The notes under the pieces are model-generated. The model had not been told where the DNA came from. It worked only from the letters and a program-made list of their open reading frames with translations, and did no database searches. 8,633 nt of DNA from a virus (Duplodnaviria; Heunggongvirae; Uroviricota; Caudoviricetes), in the IMG/VR virus record IMGVR_UViG_2541047745_000004, positions 1 through 8,633 of that record; one strand, written 5' to 3'. Of the stretch, positions 2,206-8,633 are shown one piece after another. The translations under genes were made by a program, and so were the position numbers. Position 1 is the first letter of the stretch; each line of letters begins with the position of its first letter.

Positions 2206-2892
2206 TCACTCTCCTTTGATGCGAATGCCAGCGGCGCGGGAATCATTCCATCGCTTTACTTCTTCACGAATTACGTCAATGCATTCTTTCGAATCCATTA
2301 GGTAATCTTCATCAAAAAGCCTTTCCTGTTCGTTTTCTATCGCAACAATGATTGCTTCAACTAACTTTTGTGCCTGAGAACCACTTTCTAACTCTGCAAT
2401 GCGCTTCTCTGCGGCTTCCAGCTTCTCGCGCATATCGTCAACGTACTCGACCAGAGATCCGCCAGCAGGAATTTCGCACTCCTCGACCAGTTGGAAGTAG
2501 ATATCAGCTGCGGCCCGTGTGTTGCTATGCCTAGCGTCGCCCATCTCACCTTCACGAAGAGCATCGCGTTCGGCGGTAAGATTGGCTATTTTGCTGTCTT
2601 TGCCTTCCAGCTCAACGCGCAGCTTCCCAACCGTAAGCGCAATCTCCTCGTTCTCCTGGTCGCGGCGTTTGATGTATTGCTGGTTTCTTTCCCGTTCATC
2701 CAGCAGTGCCAGCACGGTTTCTGGTCCGGTCAGAAATTTGAAGGCGTTGAGCGCATCAATATCCACACCGTAATCTTTAAGTTCCTGTTCACTTAACAAA
2801 TCATCATCAACTGGCAACATTAACAGGCGATCCATTGCCGGAATTGCACGCTCTGCCTCCTCACGCAGTGCCTGATAGTCAATCTTGCTCAC
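2206..2892 (-). CDS. Ea22-like (ead/Ea22 family) coiled-coil protein, 228 aa
   Basis: GTG start at 2892-2890 with AGGAGG (2899-2904) 6 nt upstream, overlapping the TGA of the upstream gene (GTGA). Segments ...LLDERERNQQYIKRRDQENEEIALTVGKLRVELE... and the C-terminus ...AGIRIKGE match lambda Ea22 as I remember it. Confidence 0.7.
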   Translation of the reverse strand: MSKIDYQALREEAERAIPAMDRLLMLPVDDDLLSEQELKDYGVDIDALNAFKFLTGPETVLALLDERERNQQYIKRRDQENEEIALTVGKLRVELEGKDSKIANLTAERDALREGEMGDARHSNTRAAADIYFQLVEECEIPAGGSLVEYVDDMREKLEAAEKRIAELESGSQAQKLVEAIIVAIENEQERLFDEDYLMDSKECIDVIREEVKRWNDSRAAGIRIKGE

Positions 2893-3443
2893 TGGTTGCC
2901 TCCTTTGCGAAGCTGTTCAGCAATACTTACGCATATCTCTGCGCCTCTAATCAGCCCCGGAACGTTCTTGTTTGGCCCAACTTCACCATCAACAAAATCA
3001 ATCATCGCGTTACGAGCCATATTCACCCCCTGCGCCCGCACTTCAGCCAGGCATTTGCGAAACTCGGAAACGTACTGTTCGACGCTCATTCCCCAGCTAA
3101 GTGGACATTCATTGAATGTTTCGCCTTCGTGCTCTTCATCAGGTAGCTCTTTGGTAAAGAACTCACGTTCAATGGCGTGGAGTGTGTCAGCAAAACGACG
3201 TAAGTTACTCAAACCTGTCGTAATGGAGAATTCAGGAGCATCACATCCGACGCCCATCTGCTGATAAACGGCGGTTTTGAAGGCCTTAAGCCCCGCATTC
3301 TCCGCCGCAAGCGCCGAAATCTTAGCCTCCGCTTCAGCAAATTTACGCACCAGATATTCAGCATTTGTTTCGTTAACCTTTAAATCTCGTGGGATGCATT
3401 TCCCGCGAAGAAACCCTTCCATTTCGAAAACATTCATGCGCAT
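2889..3443 (-). CDS. hypothetical early protein (182-184 aa)
   Basis: Start is either ATG 3443 (GGAG about 8 nt upstream) or ATG 3437, which overlaps the TGA of the YfdR-like gene (ATGA). Its stop overlaps the GTG of the Ea22-like gene. No family recognised. Occupies the position of yfdS/yfdT in CPS-53. Confidence 0.55.
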   Translation of the reverse strand: MRMNVFEMEGFLRGKCIPRDLKVNETNAEYLVRKFAEAEAKISALAAENAGLKAFKTAVYQQMGVGCDAPEFSITTGLSNLRRFADTLHAIEREFFTKELPDEEHEGETFNECPLSWGMSVEQYVSEFRKCLAEVRAQGVNMARNAMIDFVDGEVGPNKNVPGLIRGAEICVSIAEQLRKGGNQ

Positions 3444-4987: not shown

Positions 4988-5350
4988 TTAATGACCTGCT
5001 GCGCGTAGTTTTCCGTCAGGTTCACCGGCAAGAGTCAGTAATTGTCCCTGGTCTTCCTGCAGAATAGTCAGACGACCACCGCGATTGACATACATCGGCG
5101 TTTCGGTGGTGTCTTCTTCGGAAATTTTCCCGCGGTTAGTCGGTCGAACATATGAGAGTTTGTGTTTGATTTTTACACGGTTCTCATCAAATGGTTCGAT
5201 TTCCAGGTTGAGTGAGACCTTACCTTTGGTTTTCGTGTTCATCACACCGGAAGCGACTTCACTGAGAACTGCGCCGATTTTGGTTTCAAATACGCCGCCG
5301 TCCAGCTCCCCGATAAATGCCTGCACATCAGTACTGCGTTCGCTAGCCAT
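4988..5350 (-). CDS. first early-left gene, hypothetical 120-aa protein (positional equivalent of yfdP)
   Basis: ORF track gives 4988..5668 (226 aa), but the extra N-terminal 106 codons are R/P/G-rich junk-like sequence inside the GC-rich region. ATG at 5350-5348 (MASERSTDVQ...) has GAGGAG 7 nt upstream. Confidence 0.6.
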   Translation of the reverse strand: MASERSTDVQAFIGELDGGVFETKIGAVLSEVASGVMNTKTKGKVSLNLEIEPFDENRVKIKHKLSYVRPTNRGKISEEDTTETPMYVNRGGRLTILQEDQGQLLTLAGEPDGKLRAAGH

Positions 5351-5818
5351 TTTGCTGCTCCTCATCATATCGACCCTGCAAGGTCGGTTGGTTTCTCCAC
5401 AAAACAGAGAAGAACACCTGCGGTGGCAGCCGCCCGGATGGATTGGGTTATGAGCCCGTCGTCCGGTGATGCTCTTCTCTGTTTTGTAAAAAGAGCGGTA
5501 CCAGCCGGAAGCAAGGGTACAAGCTGGTACCGCCAGGACTACACACAGCATAAAGTTGTGGTGCCGGGTGCCTCCCGGTGCCTGGCGAAGGTTGCACACC
5601 AGGCGGGTGGGTATCCACAGAAGGTCGACTGTCAGCCTCAACCTTAACCCGCGTGCGCTGAGCCGCATTCACCACAACGCTAAGGATTCTCTCTGGTTGA
5701 AAATACTTAGCTGTTATGTGCCTGCTTTTAGCCACATCAGGCGAGGTGGGCCTGGTTATTCCCCAACAACAAGGATTCGGCTAATCTGGATGACTCTGTT
5801 CTTAGAGGGGATAATTAA
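5351..5818. other. GC-rich, ORF-free, highly self-complementary intergenic element (candidate structured RNA or regulatory leader)
   Basis: About 58-60% GC in sampled stretches. Only low-complexity junk-like ORFs. Multiple inverted repeats: 5399-5415 vs 5471-5487, 5495-5505 vs 5523-5533, hairpin 5559-5581, 5588-5594 vs 5639-5645. Function not established. Confidence 0.4.
5399..5487. repeat. long inverted repeat (15 contiguous bp of 17-nt arms) with 55-nt spacer
   Basis: ACAAAACAGAGAAGAAC (5399-5415) versus GCTCTTCTCTGTTTTGT (5471-5487). The reverse complement of the right arm is ACAAAACAGAGAAGAGC, giving one mismatch. Confidence 0.8.
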
Positions 5819-6331
5819 ATGGGAGCGATTTATGTTAAACGTTTGATTCTGTCGGTAGCACTGATAATACCGATAGCATCCAATGCTTCTGATGCTTTGA
5901 ACCAGCCGAGCAGTAGTCTAAATGATGGTGTTGAGACTTTTTTTATTTCCTGCTTTGATATGCCTCAGGAAACAACTACTGATATGGACGCTTGTCAGAG
6001 AGTTCAGTTAGCTCAGGTTAGTTGGGTTAAGAATAAGTATTCGGTGGCCGCCCTGAATCGTTTGAAACAAGACAACAAGGATGATCCACAGCGTCTGCAG
6101 GAATTAACTGCTTCTTTTAACGCGGAAAGTGAAGCTTGGACAGAATTAATTGAGAAAGCGTCAAAGTCCGTCCAGGTTGATTATGCAGGAGGAACTATAG
6201 CTGGCACTGCAGTTGCATCACGTCAAATTGGTCTTCTGGAATTACAATCCCACGATATCTGGGAGCACTGGCTACGATTCGAGGACTCAACTCCTCCTCT
6301 TTTGCCAGAACCAAAGTTCAAATCTGAGTAA
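5819..6331 (+). CDS. secreted/periplasmic moron protein (170 aa) with Sec-type signal peptide
   Basis: ATG at 5819 with GAGGGG 8 nt upstream. N-terminus MGAIYVKRLILSVALIIPIASNA/SDA has a basic n-region, a hydrophobic core and an S-N-A cleavage motif, with no lipobox Cys. A sampled stretch is about 43% GC. Own intrinsic terminator downstream; convergent with cI. Possible LprI/DUF1311-like periplasmic protein, but that is a weak unverified recollection. Confidence 0.65.
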   Translation: MGAIYVKRLILSVALIIPIASNASDALNQPSSSLNDGVETFFISCFDMPQETTTDMDACQRVQLAQVSWVKNKYSVAALNRLKQDNKDDPQRLQELTASFNAESEAWTELIEKASKSVQVDYAGGTIAGTAVASRQIGLLELQSHDIWEHWLRFEDSTPPLLPEPKFKSE

Positions 6332-6340
6332 TAAGTCATC

Positions 6341-6357
6341 CAGATTGTTAAAGAGCG
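6341..6357 (-). promoter_or_regulatory. boxA-like antitermination motif on the leftward transcript
   Basis: Minus strand reads CGCTCTTTAACAATCTG. The core GCTCTTTAACAAT (13 nt) is identical to the E. coli rrn boxA core (UGCUCUUUAACAAU...) and fits the lambdoid boxA consensus CGCUCUU(U)A. It directly follows a hairpin (antisense of the moron terminator) and lies about 180 nt downstream of the operator repeats. Confidence 0.45.
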
Positions 6358-6358
6358 A

Positions 6359-6381
6359 AGCGTCCTATAGGGCGCTTTTTT
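6359..6381 (+). terminator. rho-independent terminator of the 5819..6331 gene
   Basis: Stem AGCGTCC (6359-6365) / GGGCGCT (6370-6376) with one G-U pair, loop TATA, followed by a T run at 6376-6381, about 28 nt after the stop codon. Confidence 0.65.
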
Positions 6382-6555
6382 GTTGCTAACGAATCATCCT
6401 GGACTTCATATGCCCCAGGCGGCTACTTCGTGGTCGTCCTGACTGTTCGTTTTTGACATTTACTGACCGCTTACGACACATGCACCATGCACCGTGTTGC
6501 AACCAGATTTTGTTGTAATCCTGTAGTTGGTCTGGAACAAAAGATAAAATTAAAA

Positions 6556-6592
6556 TGCGAGATGTGCAAGCAATATTTTGCGAGATGTGCAA
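6556..6592. promoter_or_regulatory. oL-like operator pair (tandem direct repeats) with candidate pL
   Basis: Perfect 14-bp direct repeat TGCGAGATGTGCAA at 6556-6569 and 6579-6592, sharing 11 of 14 positions with TGCGTGATAAGCAA at 7361-7374 in the cI/cro intergenic region. Candidate leftward promoter on the minus strand: -35 TTGCAC (6564-6569), 17-bp spacer, -10 TATCTT (6541-6546). Promoter assignment is tentative. Confidence 0.5.
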
Positions 6593-6605
6593 AATGATGG
6601 GTGAT

Positions 6606-6646: not shown

Positions 6647-7339
6647 TTAATTATGTCTCTTAAGGGTTTGCGACTGACTGATTAAGACCTTTCCAAAGAC
6701 CATGAATCGGTGTTCGTTTTCGCTAGTAATTCCCCATTCACGGTAAATCTGGTTATCAGAAATCACCAGCAGTTTGTCAGGAATCATTTGAAGTCTTTTA
6801 ACGTATATTTTGTCATCAAAACCAAAGACATATATACCATCACCATCAAACTGATTGATGCTGACATCAACGAAGATGAGATCTCCTGGCTCAATGGTTG
6901 GACACATACTGTCCCCACGAACGTTGATAACTTTGATGTGATTGGCTGGTCGTCCGCCGAACATTGATACAGCATTATCAGTTCTGTATTCGATGGCATG
7001 AATCACATCAATGACATCACCGCCCTGGATAAGGCCATTTCCCGCACTGGCACTGATATCCAGCATTTCAATACGGAACACATCCTTCACCTGCGCAACA
7101 TCCTCATCATTACTGTTTTTATATACAGTATTACTTTTGAGGGCAGAGGTAAAGAGATCAGCAATATCAACACCTAAGCTCTTGGCAATATTACTCAGTG
7201 TTTGTTCGGTAAATTGTTTCTGCTTACCCGTTTCTAAGCGCGAGATGTTCGCCGCATCTACTCCTATTGCTTCAGCGAGATCGGCGATTTTCATGTTCTT
7301 CGCTTGGCGAAGTTGTCTGACTCGGTTTCCTATGTTCAT
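6647..7339 (-). CDS. cI: CI-type prophage repressor (N-terminal XRE HTH, C-terminal S24 LexA-like autopeptidase)
   Basis: 230 aa. HTH ...IADLAEAIGVDAANISRLETGK.... Ala-Gly at SASAGNG as candidate autocleavage site. Catalytic Ser in RGDSMCP and Lys in YVKRLQ. Divergent from the cro-like gene. Confidence 0.85.
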   Translation of the reverse strand: MNIGNRVRQLRQAKNMKIADLAEAIGVDAANISRLETGKQKQFTEQTLSNIAKSLGVDIADLFTSALKSNTVYKNSNDEDVAQVKDVFRIEMLDISASAGNGLIQGGDVIDVIHAIEYRTDNAVSMFGGRPANHIKVINVRGDSMCPTIEPGDLIFVDVSINQFDGDGIYVFGFDDKIYVKRLQMIPDKLLVISDNQIYREWGITSENEHRFMVFGKVLISQSQTLKRHN

Positions 7340-7436
7340 GCGTTTATTACATTTCTTTATTGCGTGATAAGCAAATCAACTTGCGCAAAACACTTGCGTG
7401 AAATAACATGCATAACGCGCAATATTTGGAGGGTAT
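7340..7436. promoter_or_regulatory. divergent switch region (oR operators, pRM and pR)
   Basis: TTGCG half-sites at 7360, 7381 and 7394, with GCAA/CGCAA at 7371-7374, 7384-7388 and 7418-7422. Candidate pRM on the minus strand: -35 TTGCTT (7369-7374), 17-bp spacer, -10 TGTAAT (7346-7351), placing the start about at the cI ATG with no Shine-Dalgarno sequence (leaderless, as for lambda cI). Candidate pR: -35 TTGCGC (7381-7386), -10 TAACAT (7404-7409), weaker. Cro RBS GGAGGG at 7428-7433. Confidence 0.55.
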
Positions 7437-8241: not shown

Positions 8242-8633
8242 ACAGTTTAACGGCAAATAACCGTTTGTCGCAACAGCTGGTGGTCAGCGTCGCTGAACAC
8301 CTGTTGTTACGGCATGAATGCAGATTACCAAATCACCTGGCTGTAAGTAACCACAGAGAACTTTACCTGACTGTGGGGGGCGAGTTGTGCAGGAACTTAA
8401 CCGCTGGTTTCGTGACGGAAGAGGACTTTATGTTCATGTTATTCGTTGGGAGCCAGAAACACAGCGCGTTATCTATCTTCGCAAAGACTACCCGCATGAG
8501 TGCTTTAGTCCTTTGTGGAAATTCAGGCGTGATTTTGTTGAGTGTGAAGGACCACCAGCACATTGATTCTGCCATTCCGGGACGTTACACTGTTCAGGCA
8601 CCTTATAAAGCGGGTGCCGGGATTGGCGTCCTG
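8238..8633 (+). CDS. hypothetical protein, open at window end; possibly frameshifted at a G6 tract (see findings)
   Basis: ATG 8238 overlaps the TGA of the CII-like gene (ATGA). The frame has no stop to position 8633, which is why the ORF track omits it. The first 47 codons look protein-like and the remainder looks less convincing. Product unknown. Confidence 0.45.
   Translation, partial: MNSLTANNRLSQQLVVSVAEHLLLRHECRLPNHLAVSNHRELYLTVGGELCRNLTAGFVTEEDFMFMLFVGSQKHSALSIFAKTTRMSALVLCGNSGVILLSVKDHQHIDSAIPGRYTVQAPYKAGAGIGVL

Follow-up and report, generated by a model that had tools for sequence, protein, structure and literature searches.

STnc100 is a family of prophage small RNAs (sRNAs) that occurs in multiple copies: strain EDL933 has 11, of which one was verified by Northern blot (PMC5331693). 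The Hfq-bound EcOnc27 overlaps a copy located downstream of stx2B (PMC12711010, PMC12370729), and the family is related to PasD (bioRxiv 10.64898/2026.05.13.724894). Another prophage RNA, sRNA-17 of E. coli K1 RS218, was defined as a 193-nt transcript of an mEp460-like prophage by Northern blot and 5'/3' rapid amplification of cDNA ends, and its authors reported no relative in Rfam (PMC7719688). Its deletion raised the reads of yfdP from 0.49 to 47 (about 95-fold) and those of yfdR from 0 to 8.5, an effect read by the authors as regulation in trans (PMC7719688). Here, these systems were compared with a stretch of 470 bp (positions 5351-5818) in 8,633 nt of lambdoid prophage DNA (IMG/VR record IMGVR_UViG_2541047745_000004; the whole 8,633 nt are called "the window" hereafter). 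The region is a mosaic of several separate RNA modules and not one element, a point missed in the preliminary description of this DNA. On balance, and with somewhat more confidence than doubt, it is interpreted as the non-coding leader of the early-left operon (yfdP-yfdQ-yfdR...), transcribed from the minus strand and composed of independent modules: an sRNA with its terminator, a three-way junction which in lytic read-through transcripts would act as a ligand or decoy resembling the anticodon arm of initiator tRNA, and a hairpin.

When all Rfam 15 families were scanned, one match was obtained in the region: RF02076 (STnc100), on the minus strand at 5708..5486, aligned along its entire model (1-206 of 206; 45.4 bits, E 1.8e-7). 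The outer stem, the internal hairpins (including CACCGGGAGGCACCCGG) and the 3' terminator of the family were all aligned; the GC hairpin of the preliminary description (5559-5581) corresponded to the conserved CACCGGGAGGCACCCGG hairpin of the family, and a 9-bp pair which it had not listed corresponded to the closing stem of the model. The score was just under the Rfam gathering threshold of 47 bits, so that standard annotation overlooks this sRNA. SfV (39.5 bits), phiES15 (40.6 bits) and ST64B (35.1 bits) likewise gave sub-threshold matches, in each case at this position. The 3' end had the features of an intrinsic terminator, an 11-bp perfect, G+C-rich stem followed by UCUUUUU, which a simple terminator scanner had passed over because the 17-nt loop exceeds its 8-nt limit. 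The string CGCTCTTTTTACAA, previously considered boxA-like, is therefore the terminator tail, that is, the end of the 3' arm and the U-tract. The assignment of the predicted sRNA as a near-threshold member of the STnc100/PasD kind in a new context is well supported. Of the three options offered in the preliminary description, a prophage sRNA was thus retained for 5488-5708 (minus strand), and a nut- or put-like RNA and a protein-binding DNA site were not.

Two other parts of the leader (Table 1) were kept across phages. Module A, at the 5' end of the leader or sRNA unit, showed no covariation and could be either a stem-loop with which the sRNA starts or a piece of the sRNA promoter. The single-stranded linker was kept as (A)UUGCUGUGUGUAGUCUUGGCGG in phages with different cores, and is a candidate seed or Hfq-binding region.

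The window sRNA shared its ends with sRNA-17: the UUGUGGUGAAUGCG start, the GGUACCGCUCUUUUU terminator and the same locus between the repressor region and yfdP. In mEp460, the corresponding 193 nt (L008, 2638-2830) begin with TTGTGGTGAATGCG, as in the alignment of PMC7719688 and at window position 5677, and end at the GGTACCGCTCTTTTT terminator. Since the mEp460 ends are shared, the RNA of the window would run from 5677 to 5488 (190 nt); the Rfam model pushes the 5' end to 5708, so that the length of the sRNA is put at about 190-220 nt. Homology did not extend over the whole length: the similarity to the mEp460 type stops at window position 5535, and the bodies differ. The putative window sRNA is, with good support, a positional homolog of sRNA-17. 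We read the de-repression of yfdP on deletion of sRNA-17 as a probable consequence of terminator loss, i.e. of losing the insulation of the early-left genes in the lysogen.

BLAST comparisons with phage genomes pointed to the same mosaic junction at position 5535. Window positions 5351-5535 were 98-99% identical in mEp460, cdtI and Stx2c phages, SfV, SfII and SfIV were matched from 5351 to 5749/5791 at 95-98%, and ST64B from 5387 to 5694 at 78%; only short pieces were matched in other phages. Among 188 related loci, the core between module A and the linker-terminator was a swappable cassette, closed by UUGUGGUG...CACCACAAC, with at least six unrelated types of body (about 50-250 nt) between the same ends; in some phages there was no core cassette and module A directly abutted the linker-terminator. 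The ends of the small RNA appear to be fixed and the bodies between them interchangeable, as in a cassette. As a separate observation, the core cassettes of Kp4866-6 and phiNP (L005, about 2700-3000, and L006, about 2620-2800, both minus) contained T-arm-like strings (GGTTCGATTCCAGAC and GTCCGTTCGATTCGGAC); ARAGORN found no tRNA in either cassette. Core cassettes may hold further tRNA-derived pieces.

The exchange of cores bears on the proposal of a transcription attenuator or riboswitch, in which mutually exclusive structures at the terminator would decide early-left expression. The terminator lies about 140 nt upstream of the first gene and is flanked by strong, alternative-looking helices, and deletion of the sRNA unit de-represses yfdP (PMC7719688). 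However, the pairing with AAGAGC (5491-5496) on which the preliminary description had based its attenuator was not conserved in homologs, and the competing arm is downstream of the terminator that needs control, hence transcribed after it. No conserved anti-terminator helix overlapped the 5' arm of the terminator, and an upstream core that comes in at least six unrelated bodies does not look like a domain for sensing a ligand. An attenuator or riboswitch is highly improbable.

The second main module follows the sRNA terminator. The large hairpin with a 55-nt loop of the preliminary description was found to be a three-way junction, in which the repeat belongs to the outer helix (P1) and which carries an initiator-tRNA-like arm (P2) and a hypervariable hairpin (P3) (Table 1). 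Sixty-five distinct junction sequences were aligned, with partners slid by 1-3 columns and 500 shuffles as controls. Paired cells amounted to 95%, versus 39-50% with slid partners. As the preliminary description had suggested looking for, compensatory changes were present across related phages: ten pairs were changed on both sides (120 cells versus a shuffle average of 39), and none of the 500 shuffles reached the observed score, a significance which these controls overstate because the sequences are related by descent. Pair 6-113 was CG in 41 sequences and AU in 20, pair 11-108 was GC in 43 and CG in 21, and pair 28-52 was GC in 40 and AU in 18. Frequent G.U pairs (18-101 in 18 sequences, 5-114 in 16 and 21-98 in 60) would be A.C mismatches on the plus strand, which argues for an RNA of the minus strand. 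R1, a covariance model built from this alignment, scored the window at 110.5 bits on the minus strand versus 38.5 bits on the plus strand. P3 varied from 14 to about 40 nt, and the whole junction from 99 to 126 nt. On this comparative evidence, the junction is a real RNA of the minus strand. The restriction of the G.U pairs to the minus strand, together with the roughly 70 bits by which the covariance model scores higher there, makes a protein-binding DNA site unlikely.

At least 180 phage contigs carried the junction, which was also recovered from 8 genera of enterobacteria. A scan with an interior pattern gave at least 120 IMG/VR contigs, and a second pattern, with the 13-nt tip of P2 written as N, matched another, overlapping set. 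This second pattern also gave 17 loci in Pseudescherichia, Pseudocitrobacter, Citrobacter, Enterobacter, Kosakonia, Klebsiella, Atlantibacter and Mixta; beside them stood one assembly labelled Chryseobacterium, probably contaminated or mislabelled. The junction was absent from Rfam 15, and literature searches, including those for initiator-tRNA mimics in phages and for VapC decoys, returned no description. It is apparently a widely conserved RNA that has not been described before.

Two shorter elements follow the junction. The string GGAGAAAC, 3' of P1, can pair with the U-tract of the terminator in the fold of the whole 468 nt, where P1 runs to 25 pairs, and it probably extends P1 in this manner in the modelled structure. 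The module D hairpin held its place in 55 distinct versions, among which 27 different, covarying stems were counted. Its loop was nearly always (U/G)GCA closed by U.G, and the same loop was found in many P3 hairpins. In three loci (L182, L188 and L197), a conserved structured stretch, CGCUUCAUUAAGUGCC...UAUUAAAGCGAAAC..., was observed about 20-110 nt after module D, replacing the immediate ribosome-binding site.

The pairing and length of the junction also bear on a coding origin of the region, as the frameshifted remnant of a gene for a small phage protein. RefSeq/PGAP annotates a "frameshifted hypothetical protein" at about 5365-5675 (minus); in addition, the plus-strand open reading frame (ORF) 5423-5647 matched phrog_3651 (E 4e-49) and the minus-strand ORF 5365-5514 matched phrog_33599 (E 2e-17). 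These PHROG matches lie on opposite strands of the same DNA, however, and neither family has a known function. The ORFs were broken in 8 of 30, 21 of 32 and 2 of 36 close homologs, versus none of 55 for yfdP; the junction length was not a multiple of 3 in 20 of the 65 sequences, and pairing was kept by double substitutions. The same DNA is covered by a full-length match to an RNA family. All the ORFs listed in the preliminary description exist, together with a further one (5365-5514, minus, 49 aa), and its term "ORF-free" holds in the sense that there is no credible gene: none of these ORFs had a match in Pfam, and a coding frame is not supported. A conserved structured RNA over which ORFs have been called on both strands appears to account for the "frameshifted" gene and for PHROG families 3651 and 33599, and a degraded protein-coding gene is scarcely credible.

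The feature of the junction which suggests a function is the P2 arm. Three G-C pairs are the hallmark of initiator tRNA, and mimicry of an anticodon arm in an mRNA leader is exemplified by the thrS operator, which mimics that of tRNA-Thr. The tip of P2 was identical at 16 of 17 positions to nt 25-42 of E. coli metZ tRNA-fMet (CGTCGGGCTCATAACCC, versus CGACGGGCTCATAACCC here). Local alignment to tRNA-fMet scored 29, versus 13.4 +/- 2.1 in 5000 shuffles, one of which reached 29; the next best score in the window was 21. An anticodon arm of the initiator type was present, with CAU in a CUCAUAA loop closed by three G-C pairs, and the hairpin was formed in every fold. The tip GGGCUCAUAACCC was found in 147 of 173 viral sequences although it had been left free in the search pattern; the remainder were ...UUACCC (13), ...UUCCCC (5) and eight singletons with one change each. 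It was also kept in 15 of 17 across the 8 genera plus the mislabelled or contaminant assembly. The tip was the most conserved part of the junction, whereas the arms around it varied freely, and the only common variation in the loop of the mimic was at positions 37/38 (AA, UA or UC). Regarding targets within the window, no site complementary to the tRNA-like loop was found elsewhere in it within 3 mismatches; pairing of the loop with the yfdP start region was considered and discarded, as it was not conserved across homologs on inspection.

Relatives of the junction were found in the leaders of late operons. R1, built from the early-left form (type 1) only, recovered two further forms, types 2 and 3, at E values of about 1e-8 to 1e-2. 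Type 2 (39-40 bits, E about 1e-8) stood 6 nt behind the last of four tRNA genes (Asn-Phe-Thr-Arg), as the fifth unit of their array, in the interval from the Q antiterminator gene to the holin gene; its P1 is short (GGCCUG/CAGGCC) and precedes GCCA, and covariation was seen in its P3. Type 3 (17-25 bits) was located in the Q-holin interval after a tR'-like terminator, in E. coli phage vB_EcoM-689R2 among other phages. A scan with loop variants of types 2 and 3 gave at least 120 more viral contigs, with 54 distinct type-2 sequences, two being unrelated chance matches, and the blastn matches of type 2 in annotated phage genomes were almost all in Klebsiella phages. Types 1 and 2 coexist in one contig (L012), type 1 in the leader of the early-left operon and type 2 at a distance of 230 nt past the Q gene. 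As a possible tRNA, type 2 was rejected: it was not called by ARAGORN, and the Rfam tRNA model found the four real tRNAs of contig L318 but not the adjacent element, even at E values up to 10. Type 1, for its part, follows the sRNA terminator. By position, the common theme is a predicted junction just beyond a terminator or a tRNA array, heading an operon expressed by read-through.

A rival reading gives the junction a role as a processing signal only, in which a tRNA-like or RNase III punctuation element cuts the transcript between the sRNA/terminator and the early-left mRNA and sets the 5' end, stability and translation of the latter, the arm being a leftover of a tRNA gene. The lambda N leader carries an RNase III-sensitive hairpin of this kind. 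P1 is long and nearly perfect, is kept by compensatory changes and reaches about 25 pairs with the U-tract; type 2 stands at tRNA spacing in its array and ends in GCCA, as would a substrate of RNase P or tRNA processing. The first downstream gene varies, which speaks for a role at the operon level: it is mostly YfdP-like, and in other cases its product begins with MKLPKFRSAIVYR or MNNPFFKNMLVYR (these putative products look RdgC-like by eye). On the other hand, a helix to be cut needs no near-invariant 13-nt tip, whereas here conservation is highest in the tip and the helices are what drifts; types 2 and 3, moreover, have short P1 stems which RNase III would not cut. Processing as the sole function is unlikely, while deserving serious attention, and processing and a ligand or decoy role are not mutually exclusive.

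The location between the immunity region and the first early-left gene, which is that of lambda nutL and HK022 putL, also raises the possibility that the leader is an RNA for processive antitermination, either resembling put or serving an unrecognised protein as its nut site, which would act in cis on read-through of the downstream early-left terminators. Terminators lie in the path of the pL transcript, and no N-like protein was found among the ORFs of the window, in agreement with the preliminary description, or among the neighbours tested. Junction relatives occur in late-operon leaders, one contig having both an early-left and a late copy, and the hairpins with the recurring U(U/G)GCAG loop could be protein sites. 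Nevertheless, when the HK022 pL-nun interval was read and folded, no putL resemblance was seen on inspection (no alignment was made), and R1 found nothing in the HK022 locus (L009). The supposed boxA is a terminator tail, the junction is downstream of the terminator most in need of suppression, the late-leader copies are in phages which already have Q, and yfdP went up, not down, when the upstream sRNA unit was removed (PMC7719688). A lambda-type nut site, in which boxA (CGCUCUUA) precedes a boxB hairpin and a cognate N protein is encoded, was not supported in particular: the boxA-like string is the stem end and U-tract of the terminator, no boxB-like pentaloop hairpin follows it, and no N-like protein was found among the ORFs of the window or the neighbours tested. 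Antitermination is very unlikely.

The preferred reading, a leader made of an sRNA, a ligand- or decoy-bearing junction and a hairpin, would work as follows. In the lysogen, the sRNA would be made and its terminator would keep transcription out of the early-left genes; expression and insulation are proposed because they were shown for the mEp460-type homolog (PMC7719688). A polymerase reading through the terminator would transcribe the junction next, and then the module D hairpin. The junction would be made only during lytic read-through, as suggested by the related forms after a tR'-like terminator or a tRNA array. The long P1 helix is probably an RNase III site which would separate the sRNA from the mRNA. 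The invariant arm would be a ligand or decoy for a cellular factor that recognises the anticodon arm of initiator tRNA, with a VapC-type tRNA-fMet nuclease, the 30S P site with initiation factor 3, and methionyl-tRNA synthetase as candidate partners. Enteric VapC toxins cleave tRNA-fMet between A38 and C39 (PMC4105405), and it has been proposed that the tRNAs of phages serve to counter anticodon nucleases (PMC10264068). The cut at 38/39, together with the variation of the mimic at positions 37/38, makes a decoy attractive: heading early-left and late read-through transcripts, the junction would be bound or cut by a host enzyme attacking tRNA-fMet, VapC being the obvious one, and would protect phage translation initiation. 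This specific version, deduced from sequence comparison, is quite unlikely to be correct as it stands.

Several points weigh against the preferred reading, besides the sub-threshold Rfam score and the common descent of the aligned junctions. The putative ligand or decoy role is drawn from sequence identity and context. The junction is not a tRNA: neither in the window nor in 11 related loci did ARAGORN find any gene, and both the D-arm and the T-arm are missing; only the three G-C pairs are kept, the lower two pairs of the tRNA stem being mismatched. No recognisable N protein was found to carry lytic transcription past the terminator. Concerning the sRNA, its promoter was not located, with only two weak sigma-70-like matches, fewer than expected by chance and neither conserved. 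The ends of sRNA-17 were placed via mEp460 and the supplementary alignment of PMC7719688. Finally, the mEp460-type body of sRNA-17 was undetected by the STnc100 model, so that the homology with sRNA-17 is one of position, closing stem and terminator.

Table 1. Coordinates of the RNA modules, genes and repeats; positions are those of the window except for the last three rows.
Feature	Position	Strand	Remarks
Small-RNA gene (predicted)	5708/5677 to 5488	minus	Rfam STnc100 match; sRNA-17 homology
Module A, motif CCCACCUCGCCUGAUGUGGCUAAAAGCAGGCAC	5718..5750	minus	Conserved in SfV, phiES15, Kp4866-6 and many IMG/VR contigs
13-bp hairpin 5' of core	5679..5711	minus	Inverted repeat, fold; inside STnc100 match (model about 1-30)
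Multi-hairpin core	5555..5677	minus	Closed by UUGUGGUG / CACCACAA; contains CACCGGGAGGCACCCGG hairpin; Rfam match
Single-stranded linker UUUAUGCUGUGUGUAGUCCUG	5534..5554	minus	
Intrinsic terminator	5488..5533	minus	Stem 5533-5523 / 5505-5495, 17-nt loop, tail UCUUUUU 5494-5488
Module C, three-way junction	5397..5489	minus	65 aligned versions, covariation, fold
P1, 22-bp stem	5489-5468 / 5418-5397	minus	
P2, initiator-tRNA-like arm	5466-5434	minus	CCGGA-CGAC-GGGCUCAUAACCC-AAUCCA-UCCGG; tip GGGCUCAUAACCC 5457-5445
P3, hypervariable hairpin GCGGCUGCCACCGC	5433-5420	minus	
GGAGAAAC 3' of P1	5391..5398	minus	Shine-Dalgarno-like, no start codon after; conserved in nearly all versions
Module D hairpin CGACC-UUGCAG-GGUCG	5371..5386	minus	8 nt upstream of yfdP Shine-Dalgarno
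yfdP ribosome-binding site GAGGAG and start codon ATG	5363-5358 and 5350-5348	minus	
yfdP	4988-5350	minus	First early-left gene; ORF and RefSeq annotation; yfdQ and yfdR further left, also minus
S24 repressor	6647-7339	minus	Gene order/annotation
Cro-like gene	7437-7697		Gene order/annotation
CII-like YmfL	7690-8241		Gene order/annotation
Inverted repeat	5399-5423 / 5463-5487		25-nt arms, 84% complementary, contains 15 contiguous bp
Inverted repeat	5495-5505 / 5523-5533		11 bp, perfect
Inverted repeat	5588-5594 / 5639-5645		7 bp
CCGGG...CCCGG hairpin	around 5564-5578		
Inverted repeat	5555-5563 / 5670-5678		9 bp, perfect; missing from preliminary description; closes small-RNA core
Late-leader junction core, L318	2542-2608		Not called by tRNA finders
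Late-leader junction core, L012	14615-14681		Not called by tRNA finders
Late-leader junction core, L319	7014-7068		Not called by tRNA finders

In composition, the region was distinct from its surroundings, as the preliminary description had stated: GC was 0.575 for 5401-5600 and 0.595 for 5501-5700, versus 0.37-0.46 in the flanks. The four inverted repeats named there were all found (Table 1), and the recurring CAGGCG.GGTGGG string was real. Both strands of the 468 nt folded better than shuffles, the minus strand most: -188.6 kcal/mol versus -150.3 +/- 6.1 (z = -6.3), with z = -3.95 for the plus strand. The proposed scan with Infernal and Rfam gave the minus-strand STnc100 match over the sRNA part, and the location directly upstream of the first early-left gene, with the minus strand as the active one, was borne out.

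The window was 100% identical to a prophage of many E. coli chromosomes, e.g. that of strain Combat2C1, and its gene order was that of an SfV/ST64B/mEp460-type lambdoid phage. At least part of this region, taken as 571 nt, was matched in about half of the complete E. coli genomes (2860 of 5426), and at least 80% of it in 891. In the CPS-53 prophage of E. coli K-12 (L181, 3248-3604, the yfdO-yfdP spacer), the whole leader is lost, the yfdP ribosome-binding site being the first point of similarity; data sets from K-12 are therefore uninformative on the leader.

The GC-rich region is bounded by yfdP and by a plus-strand ORF of 170 aa (5819-6331). The latter has a signal-peptide-like N-terminus, a match to phrog_7681 and a weak, sub-threshold match to the lysozyme inhibitor LprI; it has its own terminator (6357-6378), its insertion separates the leader from the putative pL, and its orientation is antisense to transcripts from pL. 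SfV carries a different gene at this place, orf33, on the minus strand. As to an N-like protein, no informative family was obtained for SfV orf33, phiES15 gp10 or a 68-aa ORF of the window. Beside the 3' end of the repressor gene, TGCGAGATGTGCAA is present twice (6556-6569 and 6580-6593) and resembles TTGCGTGATAAGCAA at 7362-7376, between the repressor gene and cro; these repeats and motif are probably the oL and oR operators. A probable oL at 6556-6593 would place pL near 6540-6570, directed leftward, about 850 bp upstream of the small RNA and with the plus-strand ORF in between. At the other end, the window stops within isrK (Rfam RF01394, 31.9 bits), whose 5' half occupies positions 8598-8633 (plus); at the corresponding place, SfV and ST64B have a full isrK and then a C4 antisense RNA, an arrangement which suggests an antirepressor module under antisense control of the P1 type.

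The databases label this region as a broken hypothetical gene or as PHROG families, and RNA annotation is warranted. sRNA-17, reported without an Rfam relative (PMC7719688), is now linked to the STnc100/PasD kind. Should the arm be a decoy or a ligand, an RNA mimic would join phage tRNAs among the counter-measures to anticodon nucleases, and there would be a direct handle on early-left control in lambdoid phages without N; a decoy would also amount to an RNA-only anti-defence element hidden in the operon leaders of lambdoid phages across Enterobacteriaceae. If it is a processing signal only, the junction would still be a useful new RNA family.

Compared with known systems, the window sRNA resembles STnc100/PasD, the prophage, Hfq-associated sRNAs of Salmonella and pathogenic E. 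coli, in its full-length match and prophage location, and it is mosaic and multi-copy like the copies described (PMC5331693; bioRxiv 10.64898/2026.05.13.724894). Those copies, however, lie in late regions, e.g. 75 nt downstream of stx2B (PMC12370729, PMC12711010), whereas the window copy lies in the early-left leader beside the immunity region. With sRNA-17 it shares the 5' motif UUGUGGUGAAUGCG, the closing stem, the linker-terminator and a similar length (190 versus 193 nt); the mEp460 type is about 98-99% identical over 5351-5535, but the body between the halves of the closing stem is unrelated, and the ArcA control and virulence phenotypes of sRNA-17 (PMC7719688) are not transferable to the window sRNA. 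The P2 arm has the same 7-nt CUCAUAA loop and three G-C pairs, the initiator hallmark, as tRNA-fMet (metZ/W/V). That molecule is a real tRNA, whereas the arm belongs to an mRNA leader, in which it lies behind a helix of 22 bp. HK022 putL/putR and lambda nutL have the same early-leader location and also have relatives in a second operon leader of the same phage; the window element differs from them in standing after a terminator and not before it, with neither a boxB-type hairpin nor an N gene. Like the helix found here, the RNase III hairpin of the lambda N leader is long and conserved and comes after the early-left promoter region and before the first ribosome-binding site, but in the window the helix caps a three-way junction with a sequence-invariant arm.

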